Under the pieces are notes generated by a model that saw only the letters and a program-made list of their open reading frames with translations, was not told the DNA's origin and ran no database searches. DNA of 10,649 nt, taken from UHGV virus genome UHGV-0292054; one strand, 5' to 3'. The translations under genes were made by a program, and so were the position numbers. Of the stretch, positions 3,863 through 10,649 are shown one piece after another (position 1 is the stretch's first letter; every line of letters begins with the position of its first letter). The DNA comes from a virus.

Positions 3863-4004
3863 ACCCCCCGTCATCACGCCCTCACACGCTCACCACCGCA
3901 CAAAACAGCCCGCAGACACACCAACGCCCCGGCGCACAATCTAAACGCCATCACGACGCGCTCAGACGCTGAAAAAATAAAATCAGCACCACCGCCAGCG
4001 CGCA

Positions 4005-4023: not shown

Positions 4024-4169
4024 CGCCCGCTTCATGGGTCGGTTTTAATGCAGTTGCATGAACACCGTCAAACCTAGCTAGCATTGGCAGCAGAAAGCAA
4101 GTGAGCTAGACTAAAGCACATTCAAACTCATGCACCAAATGATGCACGGAAAAAACAGAGAAATCGCGG

Positions 4170-4199
4170 AAAAAGCAAAAAAATAGCACCCAAAGGTGC
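4170..4199 (-). terminator. Putative rho-independent terminator ending the cargo operon (minus strand)
   Basis: GCACC-CAAA-GGTGC hairpin at 4186..4199, followed on the minus strand by a T-rich run (plus-strand aaaagcaaaaaaata at 4170..4185). Lies just downstream of the stop at 4211. Confidence 0.45.
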
Positions 4200-4210
4200 C
4201 ACTTTGATGA

Positions 4211-4783
4211 TTAATTTTTATTGTCGCCAGAAGGTTTATTGTTGCTTTTGAACAAACCACTAACAACAAACCCAACCAATCCCACAATACTCACAGTTGT
4301 GGTTCCCATAAGCGCAATGATAATTGTTTCTGGTGGATCAAAATCTTTTTTCAATACATACATAAATATGACCCAGCCGACAAAACAACACCAAACAATC
4401 ATGAATTGATATGTTTTATCAGCCATAGTTCTACGGAGCTCATTGTCCGTAAGCAGGCCGTCGGTTTCCGCATTTTTTCTTTTGGTTTCTGCCTGTACGC
4501 TTTCAAGGTTAGTGCTTATAGTTTCAACACAGCGACTCAATTCAGCAATTTGAAAATTAAGACTGGATAAATCCAAACGCTGCATGGTCGCAGCATCCTC
4601 TTCTTCCTTTTGCATTTCATCAACAGCGTCCTCAACAGACTCAGGCTCATGAGATTCTTCATCCCAACAGCCCTCATCTCCCAAAGCCGCAGAGGCAGTT
4701 ATCAGATTCTGCTCAGCTTGCTGCAATCGTCTGAGAAGGTCTTTATCAAATTCAGCTGTCACTTTCTTATTATCGTCAGGCAT
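4211..4783 (-). CDS. Hypothetical membrane protein, 190 aa: acidic/coiled-coil-like N-terminal domain plus two C-terminal hydrophobic helices; candidate toxin/effector of the cargo module
   Basis: ATG at 4783..4781. Hydrophobic stretches QFMIVWCCFVGWVIFMYVL and TIIIALMGTTTVSIVGLVGFVVSGLF; acidic segment DEESHEPESVEDAVDEMQKEEED. AT-rich relative to the flanking phage genes. No homologue recalled. Confidence 0.6.
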   Translation of the reverse strand: MPDDNKKVTAEFDKDLLRRLQQAEQNLITASAALGDEGCWDEESHEPESVEDAVDEMQKEEEDAATMQRLDLSSLNFQIAELSRCVETISTNLESVQAETKRKNAETDGLLTDNELRRTMADKTYQFMIVWCCFVGWVIFMYVLKKDFDPPETIIIALMGTTTVSIVGLVGFVVSGLFKSNNKPSGDNKN

Positions 4784-4787
4784 AAAA

Positions 4788-4809
4788 AACCCCGTACATA
4801 GACGGGGTT
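4788..4809 (-). terminator. Intercistronic terminator-like hairpin (possible attenuator) between the two cargo genes
   Basis: Perfect 8-bp stem AACCCCGT / ACGGGGTT with a 6-nt loop, followed on the minus strand by a U-run that ends at the ATG of the downstream gene (4783). The only purine-rich candidate SD (GGGG) is inside the stem. Confidence 0.45.
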
Positions 4810-4823
4810 ATCTTAATTCGGAC

Positions 4824-5294
4824 TCATAGTCCGATGCAATTGCTATCGCCGTGTAGCAGCTTTTGATAGTAATCCTGAATAACGGAATCAGGAATGATAT
4901 CCATACGACTATCCATTGCTTGCTTCCAAGGAGTACCTTCACGATGTGTGAAAGCAGATAAATCCTCAGCGGTATATTTACCGTAAACGTTATAAACGTT
5001 CTGCAGCAACTGCTCAGTCATAGGGTCAAACTCCTGAGAAATTGCCGATGGAACTTGTATTGGTTGTGTTATGGGACTACGGCCATAAACTTTAAGATAG
5101 TTATACAGAACTGGAACCACTGGACCATAACGCCATGCACAAACTGGTGTCGTTAACAAAGGCGTCCCTTTGTAACCCAGATTTATACCATGTGCTATAT
5201 AGGTCAGCTTTTGTGCCTGCATCTGGGTGATTGGCATACCAGCCGCGCAAGCAAGTTCTATAAACTTATTCGCGATGTTCAATGGGCTGTACAT
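4824..5294 (-). CDS. Panacea/DUF4065-like protein, 156 aa (PanA/SocA-type candidate antitoxin or sensor)
   Basis: ATG at 5294 preceded by AAGGAGG 6 nt upstream; the track start at 5345 is a GTG and was rejected. The motif QKLTYIAHG...G.PLL...AWRYGPVVPVLY resembles the conserved core of PF13274 as I remember it. Sits directly upstream of the membrane-protein gene. Confidence 0.55.
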   Translation of the reverse strand: MYSPLNIANKFIELACAAGMPITQMQAQKLTYIAHGINLGYKGTPLLTTPVCAWRYGPVVPVLYNYLKVYGRSPITQPIQVPSAISQEFDPMTEQLLQNVYNVYGKYTAEDLSAFTHREGTPWKQAMDSRMDIIPDSVIQDYYQKLLHGDSNCIGL

Positions 5295-5511
5295 ACTCAA
5301 CCTCCTTTGCTGTCCTCTTATGTCACGAAAAGCAACCGAGAACACTCAATTTTTACCTATACCCGAGCCTTCAAGCCTGGAATTGTAAACGCTATATCTT
5401 AAGCATACTCAACATTGCGCGCGGAGTATAAATTTGATAGTGAGCATACACAATCAATAAACCATATATTTTTATAGAAATATACATTTATAGCATCTTT
5501 CCAGATTAAAG

Positions 5512-5531
5512 TACTGTATATAAAAACAGTA
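5512..5531. promoter_or_regulatory. LexA (SOS) box
   Basis: TACTGTATATAAAAACAGTA has CTGT-N8-ACAG with an AT-rich spacer, 18/20 matches to the consensus TACTGTATATATATACAGTA. Lies between the A stop (5572) and the cargo operon start. Confidence 0.65.
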
Positions 5532-5555
5532 TAATGATTTTTATCACACTTGCAA
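5528..5555 (-). promoter_or_regulatory. Putative sigma70 promoter for the cargo operon (minus strand), overlapped by the LexA box
   Basis: Minus-strand reading gives TTGCAA (5555..5550), a 16-nt spacer, then TATACT (5533..5528). The -10 overlaps the LexA box, the usual layout of SOS-repressed promoters. Confidence 0.4.
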
Positions 5556-5571
5556 CGCTGTTCATTTCAGT

Positions 5572-7754
5572 TTATATGAATCCCGGCCACTCATCAGCGA
5601 CCGGATACGTGAATTTTTTCCCGTCATAATTTACTGTTGCCCCACGCGCCAGCGCCTCAAGCTCCCATCGCTGCGGCCTGATACCGTTCTGAGCAAGGTC
5701 AACGCGGATACGGGTGATTTGCATTCTTTCCGACCGGGTCAGTCTGGCCGATGGTGCAATTTCATGTGGTTTTAACGGGCTTCCGTTTCTTTGCTGACGG
5801 TTTGGTCTTCTCAGGCCGTGTTTTAATGCGCTTCTGAGCGCCCTCACAACCTCCGGGTCATTCCATTCGATAACACCGTCATCAACCAGATTAAGCACTG
5901 CTGCGGCGTGCTCAGAAGGTGTGGGAGCCGGTAACGAAGTATCACCACCGTTGAGCTTTCCACAGTTATTGACAGGACTCCGAGGCGCGGCGATGCCGCT
6001 TTTTAAAGTCAAAGGCTCAACGACCGGAACTTTCGGCACAATGCGCCAGTCCGTCGTTCTGGTGATATGAATATGACGCGCGCCGAGATGCGGCGCGTAA
6101 ATGCCGACCACTCTCTCGACTTCTTCCTCGTACTCGTTAACTTCATCCGACGGGCTACGGGCGACTCTGACAGTCTGGCAATCGCGCGGAACATTTGCCC
6201 CACCCTGCGCACTGATATACAACGCAAAATCGCCACTGTCTGCGGCAGCGCGTGCAGCCTCGACGCGTTCGTCAAACTCATCAGCAATGCTGACGCCCAT
6301 GCAGTAACAGCCGCGGCAGTATCTTTCAGAGGTCTGCCGGTATCGTTATCGAGCTGACCATCCAGTGCATAGCCGTCGATGTTTTTTGAGATGTATTTCG
6401 CGATATACCCCGCAGCACCGCCCCGATTAAGGTGTTTTGCCTGAAAACGGTTTCGCGCTGCTCCTCTTTCGTCGCCATCCTCTTTGAGCGCATAGCGACG
6501 CATGATTTCGATAATCTGGTTACGCTGGCGCGAATTACAAAAAAGCATCATATGCCAGTGCGGCGTTCCGTCGTGGTGTGGCTCGACGACACGCAAACCG
6601 TAGACCTGTAAATCATTATCCTTGAATGCCGTGCGCATCAGGCTCCAGATGCGGCAGAGATAACGCTGCGCATCCTTTGGATTAAATGCCTCATCGTTCC
6701 AGCCGTGATTAAGCTGAACGGTTTTACTTTCGCCTTTTCTGACCTGACGAGTCGGGTGATACTTTGACGGCGCAGTCAGCGTGATAAACATCCCCACATC
6801 ACCCTCTGCGGCGGCGTAACGCTCAATACCGGCAATGGTGTTCATCAGCTCCATCCGGCGAATTTCAGGATTAGAAATACTGCCCATCACCTTACTGATA
6901 AGGTCGATGCGCTCGCCGGTTTCCCTGTTTTCAAGGTCACACGATTTAAGAAATTCCAGATTTGCCTGGCGGCGCGCACGCACATCACGAATGGCGTGTT
7001 TACTGGCATAAGGAGAACGGTCTTTATTGACCTCCCCGACAGCTATCAGTAACGCTTCATGCCAGCGCATACGCTGGCCTTTAAGCTGATGAGTCCACCA
7101 CTCATCGTTAAACAGACGGGCAATGGCAGAATATGCCTGCCTCGTGGTCATCTGCCCTTTACGGTATTTTTTCCAGTAGAGAGGGGAAATATTGAAAGCA
7201 CGTGCAGCGCCAGCAACATGACCATAGAGGTGAGCCTGCGCCTCATCCGTAAACAGCGATTCTTTTTCGCCATGCGCATCCACCCAGGCATCGCAGAGTT
7301 CCTCATACATCATGAAAAGCTGCGATGAGATACGGGCGGCAAACTTTTTCAGCTCCTTGTCATTCATCCCCGGCAGACGCGCATAATGGTCACGCTCTGC
7401 CAGAAACAGCAACGACGCGTCGGTGTTCATTTCATGGCGCTGATTCACACGCTCAATGCGCGGCCATAAACGACGCTGAAAAGTGGATGTGAGAAAATAA
7501 AACCCGTGCACCGGGCTTTTATTGCGCCGGATGTAGTCATAGCGTGAAGTAAACAGCGAGCGCAAAAAGTAAGGCAGGCGGTTAATCGTGGATAAAACAC
7601 CTTGCACCTGACGCATCTCGTCACGTGTAAGGGGTCTTTCGCGCCCGACAGCCTCGCGTGGCGCGTTCCATGCATAAGCACCGGTAAGCGCCTTACCGGT
7701 GCCTGCGGCAAATGCTGACGGAGGGACAAAACGCCCGGAGGCTTTAACGGCCAT
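5572..7754 (-). pseudogene. A: Replication initiation endonuclease gene A (P2 gpA family), interrupted by a frameshift or small deletion near 6295..6310
   Basis: Two overlapping minus-strand ORFs in different frames (6009..7796 and 5572..6300) both match P2 gpA: the N-terminal part MAVKASGRFVPPSAF...AGYIAKYISKNIDGYALDGQLDNDTGRPLKDTAAAVTAWAS and the C-terminal part GVSIADEFDERVEAARAAADSGDF...PGFI. The 93-aa tail of the long ORF is the out-of-frame reading of the C-terminal part. ATG at 7754 chosen over the TTG at 7796. Combined length is about 727 codons against about 761 recalled for P2 A. Confidence 0.7.
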
Positions 7755-8019
7755 ATGAGCCAAAAGCCTCTGAACAACGCTTGCTGAGTTGCTCAACCTG
7801 CACGTTTAAATCAGCAAAAGACTTTGCGCTTCCGGTCAGAATATCGTGATGCATCAGGCCTGAAACGAGCTGGCTTAATTTCGGGTAATAACCAACCACC
7901 GCCAGCCATTCCTGACCGGCGTTTTTACCGCTTTCAGCTCTCTTTTTCTCGTGGAGAATAAACTGAAAGCTGTCACTGGTAACGACATAACGTTCGCCAA
8001 TTTCAATACGAATACTCAT
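7744..8019 (-). CDS. Small early-operon protein, 91 aa (position of P2 orf83)
   Basis: ATG at 8019 overlaps the upstream stop (ATGA); ends 11 nt inside the A start. Typical coupled small ORF of the P2 early operon. Confidence 0.55.
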   Translation of the reverse strand: MSIRIEIGERYVVTSDSFQFILHEKKRAESGKNAGQEWLAVVGYYPKLSQLVSGLMHHDILTGSAKSFADLNVQVEQLSKRCSEAFGSYGR

Positions 8020-8240
8020 GCCGTTCTCCGGTAATGTTTGTTTTTTGCTTCAAAGACTGACTGACAGGAAACACAACGCGTGGCTGACGGGTAAGCCGCA
8101 CGACGGGCAGCAGGTATTGGCGCGTCACACTCTTCGCAAACCAGCGCAGAAGCACCGCAATGTTTTACCCTTGCCGCGTTAATCTGGCGCTCCAGTAATT
8201 CAGCCTGTTGTTCCTGAATAAAATCTACGTTGTCCGGCAT
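8016..8240 (-). CDS. TraR/DksA-family C4 zinc-finger protein, 74 aa (P2 orf82-like)
   Basis: Four cysteines in CGASALVCEEC...RCVSCQ, the pattern of phage TraR/DksA-like proteins. ATG at 8240 overlaps the upstream stop (TAATG). Confidence 0.6.
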   Translation of the reverse strand: MPDNVDFIQEQQAELLERQINAARVKHCGASALVCEECDAPIPAARRAAYPSATRCVSCQSVFEAKNKHYRRTA

Positions 8241-10287: not shown

Positions 10288-10533
10288 ATGTCAATTAAGA
10301 AGCTCGATGATGGACGCTATGAAGTGGACATTAGACCTCGCGGTCGCGACGGAAAACGCATCCGCAGGAAATTTGAAAGAAAAGCTGAGGCTGTAGCATT
10401 TGAGCGATACACAATCGCCTACGCCAGCCAGAAAGAATGGGCAGGTCAGCGAGCAGATCGCAGAACTTTGAGTGAGTTGCTGGACATCTGGTGGAAATAT
10501 CACGGGCAAAACCACGAGCATGGAACAAAATAG
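10288..10533 (+). pseudogene. int: Integrase N-terminal fragment (about 81 codons of an expected 337), truncated by IS2
   Basis: ATG at 10288; the track start at 10258 is an upstream ATG. MSIKKLDDGRYEVDIRPRGRDGKRIRRKFERKAEAVAFERY... matches the P2 Int N-terminus. The frame ends at a TAG formed by the first bases of the IS2 end. Confidence 0.8.
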
Positions 10534-10649
10534 ACTGGCCCCCTGAATCTCCAGACAACCAATATCACTTAAATAAGTGATAGTCTTAATACTAGTTTTT
10601 AGACTAGTCATTGGAGAACAGATGATTGATGTCTTAGGGCCGGAGAAAC
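10531..10649 (+). mobile_element. IS2 (IS3 family) left end, continuing beyond the window
   Basis: tagactggccccctgaatctccagacaaccaatatcactta matches the IS2 left inverted repeat as I recall it. About 90 nt later comes ATG ATT GAT GTC TTA GGG CCG GAG AAA, encoding MIDVLGPEK, the start of InsC/OrfA. Confidence 0.8.
10622..10649 (+). CDS. insC: IS2 transposase OrfA (InsC), 5' partial
   Basis: Starts MIDVLGPEK and runs off the window end. Confidence 0.75.

Follow-up and report, generated by a model that had tools for sequence, protein, structure and literature searches.

A putative LexA operator on the distal of two predicted promoters of a panA-panT cargo cassette in a P2-type prophage

Can the host SOS response reach the cargo genes of a prophage that is not itself SOS-inducible? 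The question is raised by UHGV virus genome UHGV-0292054, a stretch of 10,649 nt (the window, below) that represents a P2-type prophage in reverse orientation. At 5512..5531, read on the plus strand, it carries the sequence TACTGTATATAAAAACAGTA, a putative LexA operator (SOS box), just beyond the end of the replication endonuclease gene A. A first-pass annotation had proposed that this site overlaps a promoter aimed at the prophage cargo and ties cargo expression to DNA damage. That proposal is supported by comparative evidence, namely the placement of the site in a variable cassette, the conserved register of -35, -10 and box, and the boxes of related loci. The site probably functions as a LexA operator for the distal promoter of a tandem pair that serves a prophage panA-panT cassette, which encodes a predicted antitoxin and a membrane toxin.

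The box had been described as near-consensus, and this holds: TACTGTATATAAAAACAGTA has 18 of 20 positions in common with the LexA consensus TACTGTATATATATACAGTA. No other site in the window comes within three mismatches of the consensus or has the perfect CTGT-N8-ACAG palindromic core, and a consensus match arose in none of 200 dinucleotide-preserving shuffles. A symmetrised LexA weight matrix, which is approximate and was built from 24 E. coli sites of the literature, scores the site at 27.1 bits, equal to its best training site. No other position in the window exceeds 8 bits, and the annotated LexA site of the phage 186 promoter p95 scores 26.7 bits. All 20 nucleotides are identical to the umuDC operator of E. 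coli K-12 (NC_000913), which lies 39 nt upstream of the umuD ATG; counting flanks, 23 nt are common to both. The umuDC operator has a heterology index of 2.77, and its basal expression is not detectable (PMC2994835). Proven LexA sites have a heterology index well below about 12, and the window site is predicted to fall within this range through its umuDC-identical 20-mer. The box is thus a very strong predicted LexA site, among the strongest natural operators known.

The same box overlaps a predicted sigma-70-type promoter on the minus strand (5528..5555), with a -35 element TTGCAA at 5555..5550, a 16-nt spacer and a -10 element TATACT at 5533..5528. This TTGCAA-N16-TATACT promoter, which the annotation had also pointed out, is the only minus-strand promoter-like match between 3800 and 5800. 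TACTGTATATAAAAACAGTA covers its -10, beginning at the third base of that element, and spans approximately -10 to +10 relative to a start whose inferred position is near 5521. The stop codon of gene A (5572..5574, minus strand) lies 17 nt upstream of the -35. No terminator-like site occurs between this stop codon and panA in the window, or between box and panA in two relatives (L252 and L003; L numbers denote the compared loci), and transcripts from the distal promoter should therefore reach panA. A promoter scan of the region found two promoter-like sites, compared with 3.7 expected from shuffles, and the distal match is not significant alone. Because the scan is no richer than shuffled sequence, the distal promoter needs outside support, which comes from its conservation in relatives.

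Box and promoter belong to a variable cassette and not to the phage backbone, as indicated by the points at which homology breaks. Backbone homology to 62 other P2-like IMG/VR loci ends at about 4060, on the cos side, and restarts at about 5577; together with the maps of P2 and 186, these breakpoints place the variable cargo cassette at 4066..5577. Conserved backbone flanks the cassette, which sits between portal gene Q/cos and gene A, in the position of tin and old in P2. This is exactly the site of the P2 tin/old defence hotspot beside cos (Rousset et al. 2022, PMC9122126). Among 5,426 complete E. coli genomes, 11 carry the cassette, always with its leader, and the leader occurs only with the cassette; carriers include E. 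coli TW10722, ETEC-2265 and 120899. Nucleotide searches of the phage collection with either the cassette or the leader returned backbone flanks only, or nothing.

Loci encoding relatives of PanA were gathered from GTDB genomes, from ENA, Logan and NCBI assemblies, and from IMG/VR. In every relative with at least 47% PanA identity, the locus is flanked by a gene A of the P2/186 type and by the portal gene, and a panT homologue follows panA. A LexA box is present between the A stop and panA in 13 of 13 loci whose PanA is 57–90% identical, and in 17 of the 18 IMG/VR loci that reach a PanA identity of 47% or more. In the only box-less locus (L194), the contig contains just about 930 nt of upstream sequence and ends before the box position of its closest relatives. 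The boxes of the relatives score 18–28 bits, occur once per locus (as a tandem pair in two loci) and comprise 22 distinct sequences.

Two architectures can be told apart among these loci. In the long form, a ribosome site comes within 15–25 nt after the box, with a gene of 50–65 aa that is homologous to the first 60 residues of Tum, the antirepressor of phage 186, with identity of up to 69% (L176). The homologue was detected by a Tum-N profile in L185, L188, L190, L191, L193 and L195 (E-values 1e-17 to 1e-27) and by BLAST in L003, L004 and L171–L176. Often a separate DinI gene comes next, 39–44% identical to the DinI-like C-terminal part of Tum (L172, L173, L176), and there is Tum-N only in L003, L004, L174 and L175. 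Where the flanking sequence extends far enough, carriers of tum have 186-type immunity: L171 and L252 encode a CI repressor (Phage_CI_repr) and CP76/CII, and L252 encodes Fil as well. The short form comprises the window, L002/L180, L165/L251, L167/L181, L169 and L182; its box lies 229–247 nt before panA, and a Tum-N profile search upstream of panA found no match in any member. The window and L251 encode the P2-type C (helix-turn-helix, HTH) and Cox proteins and not a CI-type repressor, the kind that Tum inactivates; immunity type was checked in two loci per architecture. Two further lineages (L187 and L189) have no Tum-like open reading frame (ORF) and keep the box. Cassettes with the box but without tum thus occur in at least three separate PanA lineages. 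A side observation concerns Tum itself, which is fused in phage 186 (146 aa, both parts) and split in several 186-type prophages into a Tum-N homologue of 60–63 aa and a separate DinI of 77 aa (L172 2165..2674; L173 and L252 7279..7712; L176 2265..2707).

The short form is where the box can be followed without tum, and there the distal arrangement of the window is shared by L002, L165, L167, L169 and L182. All six sequences have a -35 of the form TTGnnn (TTGCAA, TTGTAA, TTGTAC, TTGAAG or TTGCTT), a spacer of 16–17 nt and a -10 of TATACT or TATGCT, whose third base is in every case the first of the box. Column identity in their alignment is 97% over the -10 and first half-site (TACTGT) and 74% over the second half-site, compared with 55% in the promoter spacer and 59% in the 54–61 nt after the box, a stretch with indels. 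Sequence identity, positions and conservation are direct observations.

The genes downstream are those of a predicted toxin–antitoxin system. The panA gene (4824..5294, minus strand) encodes a putative 156-aa antitoxin with a Panacea/SocA domain (PF13274, 64.6 bits; cutoff 25.7), named 'Panacea domain-containing protein' in RefSeq, and has a Shine-Dalgarno sequence, AAGGAGG, 7 nt upstream of its ATG. The putative panT-like toxin gene (4211..4783, minus strand) encodes 190 aa, the N-terminal half being charged and two membrane helices being predicted in the C-terminal part; its Pfam match, to DUF2975, is weak and below the curated cutoff. In nearly all relatives examined, a panT homologue follows panA at a distance of 40–43 nt. 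PanA is 45% identical to WP_000287252.1, the PanA of Shiga toxin-producing E. coli (STEC) O31, whose locus is in E. coli 2014C-4135, and PanT is 44% identical over 95 aa to the toxin beside that validated PanA. WP_000287252.1 was validated by Kurata et al. 2022, and the toxin family depolarises and permeabilises the membrane (PMC8832971). The cassette is therefore predicted to encode a PanA antitoxin and a membrane PanT-like toxin, with toxicity and neutralisation extrapolated from this 44–45% identical E. coli pair. None of the PADLOC defence models matches PanA or PanT.

LexA-like boxes also precede panA in unrelated genomic settings. The validated E. coli PanAT (L177, NZ_CP027310) lies at the edge of a different, non-P2 prophage-like region near zur and dinF. 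Upstream of WP_000287252.1, at 5033..5156 of that locus, TTGACA-N16-TATAAT is followed by three LexA-like boxes (17.6, 20.1 and 17.1 bits), all within 141 nt of the panA ATG. In Herminiimonas sp. KBW02 (L079, approximately 3966..3985), the box TACTGTACAAATAAACAGCC (18.8 bits) sits just past a TATAAT and 35 nt before the ATG of a panA whose product is 33% identical; this gene is chromosomal, beside groES/groEL, and its partner is an unrelated 311-aa protein. A further IMG/VR locus (L207) has a box at -61 from panA. These three cases are not explicable by descent from p95-tum.

A second promoter lies closer to panA. Approximately 100 nt downstream of the box, every locus (13 printed) has TTGnnn-N17-TATA(A/C)T, then (C)CGCGCGC, then TTGAC(G/A). 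In the window, this predicted proximal promoter (5417..5453, minus strand) consists of a -35 TTGTGT at 5453..5448, a 17-nt spacer and a -10 TATACT at 5430..5425, directly followed by the G+C-rich stretch CCGCGCGC at 5424..5417; its start would lie near 5418. The block is 86% conserved in the short-form alignment. It is the best promoter match of the region in long-form loci, reaching 10–11 of 12 consensus positions in L252 and L003, whereas the window copy (8 of 12) is weaker than the distal promoter (9 of 12). The panAT genes very probably have LexA-independent transcription, to whose basal level the SOS promoter would add without being the sole control.

On the strength of sequence and comparison, LexA occupancy, promoter activity, SOS inducibility and a cellular effect can be put together as follows. 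In an undamaged lysogen, host LexA bound at 5512..5531 would cover the -10 and the start and would shut the distal promoter about as tightly as umuDC, and any basal expression of panAT would come from the proximal promoter. DNA damage would lead to RecA-stimulated self-cleavage of LexA and open the distal promoter, whose transcript, with a leader of about 227 nt, would extend past the proximal promoter and on into panA, raising panA expression. Some of these transcripts would pass the conserved hairpin terminator between the genes and enter panT, and panT expression would rise too. In evolutionary terms, a LexA-boxed promoter would drive tum (with or without dinI) and panAT in 186-type relatives, and P2-type prophages, which are not SOS-inducible, would have lost tum and retained the SOS promoter beside the cargo.

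Several observations weigh against this account. Promoter-like matches in the region are no commoner than in shuffles, and the distal promoter itself reaches only 9 of 12 consensus matches. The -10 overlaps half of the box, whose conservation could in part come from promoter selection alone. Three tum-less relatives have TCAG for ACAG in the distal half-site and score 18–20 bits, which is still in the range of proven sites. Because tum accounts for the box of the 186-type relatives, those loci do not speak independently for SOS control of panAT. Nearer to panA there is a conserved proximal promoter, perhaps a pair of them, and cassette expression may consequently be largely LexA-independent. 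Finally, toxin and antitoxin would be induced together, which blurs the physiological outcome.

Other explanations of the site have to be set against these data. A chance match in A+T-rich intergenic DNA would draw on the low G+C content of the region (approximately 38–43%), but it is effectively refuted by the shuffles, by the presence of a box in every relative (the L194 contig being too short), and by a score of 27 bits where the background yields about one 15-bit match per 145–160 kb. As to that background, unrelated PanA loci (579 kb) contain 4 matches of at least 15 bits and P2-like DNA (950 kb) contains 6, all 6 of them inside the hotspot. An unlikely but more substantial alternative is that box and distal promoter are left over from p95-tum after the loss of tum, so that LexA may bind while panAT is driven by the proximal promoter and SOS makes no meaningful difference. 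The clear homology of arrangement to p95-tum, the proximal promoter present in every locus and strong in long-form relatives, and the weakened boxes of three tum-less relatives all fit such a relic. What it does not predict is the persistence of box, -10, -35 and spacing in six tum-less sequences whose flanks have diverged to 55–59% identity with indels, or the same persistence in the L187 and L189 lineages. Nor does it sit well with a window box among the strongest natural operators known, with a short-form proximal promoter that is poorer than the distal one, or with LexA-like boxes in the unrelated genomic context of L177.

The box might also serve something other than a cargo promoter. LexA bound just past the A stop could limit read-through of the early operon (Pe-cox-B-A) into the cargo, or insulate A, and gate no promoter of its own. 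The absence of a terminator-like site after A and the start of the box only 41 nt past the A stop are compatible with such a barrier. A roadblock, however, needs no -35 and -10 conserved in one register relative to the box, and in the lysogen the early operon is under repression anyway; the idea is hypothetical and very unlikely. Still more improbable is a different target. This could be a plus-strand promoter that transcribes the 3' end of A in antisense, or a small peptide or small RNA encoded between the box and the proximal promoter. A perfect TATAAT on the plus strand (5530..5535) adjoins the box, but it is not conserved (TACACT, TATAAC, TATACA and TATAGC in relatives) and has no usable -35. 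A hydrophobic 31-aa ORF (5392..5487, minus strand) recalls a TisB-like SOS-induced peptide, but it is broken in L002, indels in its region have lengths not divisible by three, and what is conserved of it falls on the proximal promoter. The 54–61 nt between box and proximal promoter are, moreover, the least conserved stretch, with no Rfam family and no terminator. The favoured reading remains a LexA operator acting on the distal cargo promoter.

The closest known counterpart is the SOS operon of phage 186, which in record NC_001317 consists of p95 (with its LexA site), tum, the partial terminator t95a, orf97 and t95b; according to this record, expression of orf97 blocks 186 infection. Like the window operon, it lies directly downstream of gene A and before cos, reads away from A, has a LexA box over the -10 and start, and places a partial or internal terminator ahead of a non-essential cargo gene. 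Unlike it, the window has neither tum nor dinI, has P2-type immunity (C and Cox), yields a PanA/PanT pair and not an antirepressor, and has a second promoter interposed. Because tum and dinI are missing and immunity is of the P2 type, SOS would not induce the prophage through this operon. Nucleotide homology to 186 p95 was looked for and none was found beyond the LexA box. The window promoter would thus be the positional counterpart of p95 minus tum, with panAT in place of orf97, and the operon a variant of the 186-type SOS operon that has neither tum nor CI and would work like p95. The annotation had named tum of phage 186 as the comparable case, and the relationship proves closer than claimed, with homologous 186-type cassettes that carry tum between box and panAT. 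Its suggestion that SOS wiring of cargo is noteworthy stands in part: the window is P2-type, and the LexA matrix finds no site in the A-to-cos region of P2, but orf97 in the p95 SOS operon of 186 is a precedent.

Other resemblances are more partial. The 20-nt LexA site is the same as that of E. coli umuDC, one of the best-characterised LexA sites, so that for the window site, too, very tight repression and late SOS induction are expected (PMC2994835). Promoter context, orientation and regulated genes differ, and the likeness, limited to 23 nt, is convergence on the consensus and not homology. The STEC O31 PanAT, whose membrane toxin is pore-forming, has the same gene order, with the Panacea antitoxin upstream, a similar toxin with charged N-terminus and C-terminal membrane helices, and LexA-like boxes after its promoter; it differs in genomic location and has no inter-gene hairpin. 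SOS-induced membrane toxins share with the window a LexA box that gates a membrane-damaging toxin with a cognate neutraliser. Besides tisB/istR, such LexA-repressed examples are dinQ/agrB, hokE and the colicin operons. LexA regulation of tisB/istR is cited in PMC8072944, and strong LexA boxes, such as those of colicins and umuDC, lead to expression in a small subpopulation only (PMC2994835). However, tisB/istR-1, dinQ/agrB and hokE are small type I peptides under antisense RNAs and colicins are secreted bacteriocins, whereas the window encodes a 190-aa protein with a protein antitoxin as prophage cargo, and no antisense RNA family was found there. The terms 'LexA', 'SOS', 'Panacea' and 'DUF4065' do not occur in PMC9122126. 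Two papers on PanAT mention neither 'SOS' nor 'LexA', and 'SOS' is absent from the main text of PMC8832971. No link of PanAT or P2-hotspot cargo to LexA or SOS was found in the searchable literature, whose coverage is incomplete. Each component was known before, from LexA operators and the SOS operon of 186 to PanAT and membrane toxins induced by SOS; the new part would be the link of PanAT and P2-hotspot cargo to LexA.

A working operator would have consequences for how such cassettes are viewed. The usual view of P2-hotspot cargo is that of defence genes with constitutive expression. Here, the SOS response would be coupled to a toxin that permeabilises the membrane, within a non-SOS-inducible prophage. 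Defence screens that use native promoters in non-inducing conditions could miss SOS-gated systems of this kind. The locus would also be a concrete case of a regulatory module, the 186 p95 promoter, re-used after loss of its target tum. As for outcome, one may speculate about abortive killing on chromosome attack, interference with co-resident SOS-inducible prophages, or a boost to a defence module. A more ambitious reading is conceivable but doubtful: a non-SOS-inducible prophage would use host LexA as a sensor, so that damage, induction of a co-resident SOS-inducible prophage or phage attack on the chromosome fires a pore-forming PanT from the defence hotspot; SOS-triggered abortive killing, or suppression of competing prophages, would then be selected and recurrent in the PanAT clade, and the boxes at independent PanAT loci would reflect function and not tum-operon ancestry.

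Within the cassette, a terminator-like hairpin separates panA and panT (4784..4809, minus strand; AACCCCGTCTATGTACGGGGTT), and the T run behind it reaches exactly to the panT ATG. It is kept with compensatory stem changes in 21 of 22 P2/186-type cassettes (ACCCCGT/ACGGGGT, ACCCCAT/ATGGGGT, ATCCCGT/ACGGGAT, GTCCCGT/ACGGGAC and ACCCCGC/GCGGGGT), and in relatives (L002–L004, L165–L195) it is followed by T6-7 and then the panT ATG. The only Shine-Dalgarno-like purines for panT lie in the 3' arm of the stem. The hairpin, which the validated E. coli PanAT (L177) lacks, probably keeps the toxin low relative to the antitoxin. A terminator scan placed a second terminator-like hairpin at the end of the cassette (4180..4205, minus strand).

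The panA leader contains further conserved blocks (5340..5415, minus strand, and in relatives). A TTGAC(A/G) lies about 10–15 nt past the discriminator-like G+C-rich stretch of the proximal promoter and is followed after 15–17 nt by a TA-rich hexamer; the block AATTTGAGAGTTC is also conserved. These blocks may be a third promoter or an RNA element, and in the window and L002 they contain a 26-nt insertion. No known RNA family (Rfam) was found in the window. The same prophage encodes a TraR/DksA-type zinc-finger protein (8016..8240, minus strand). Promoters with G+C-rich discriminators are typical targets of DksA/TraR-like factors, and it is pure speculation that the phage turns the proximal promoter down in lytic growth via this protein.

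About 4 of the 62 other hotspot cassettes sampled carry a LexA-like box. In L121 (10854..10873), the box TACTGTGTTTTTATACAGTT (23.5 bits) lies 174 nt past the A stop and precedes a cassette whose products include a small membrane protein and an ATPase-like protein of 645 aa. The hotspot cassettes of L135 and L147 each have a LexA-like box of 19.5 bits at 11999..12018.

The gene order of the prophage, taken from a RefSeq-annotated E. coli chromosome that matches 4100..5600 at 100%, runs from capsid scaffold O, terminase P and portal Q through the DUF2975 protein and the Panacea-domain protein to replication endonuclease A, and then through four small P2 early genes, B, Cox, the HTH repressor and the integrase, which adjoins cpxP. 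Gene A (5572 to about 7754, minus strand) has an 85-bp deletion at approximately 6291..6297 relative to the prophage in NZ_CP025916, which is otherwise 99.98–100% identical to the window. The deletion divides A into two frames (ORFs 5572..6300 and 6009..7796) and is absent from the best-matching complete genomes listed, including all at 100%, which give a two-piece alignment spanning 686 bp. The integrase gene breaks off at 10530/10531, interrupted by one end of an IS2 element of the IS3 family, and the terminal 119 nt (10531..10649) are 100% identical to the multi-copy IS2 of E. coli genomes. The deletion in A and the interrupted integrase suggest that the prophage is defective, with its cargo cassette and LexA box still intact.
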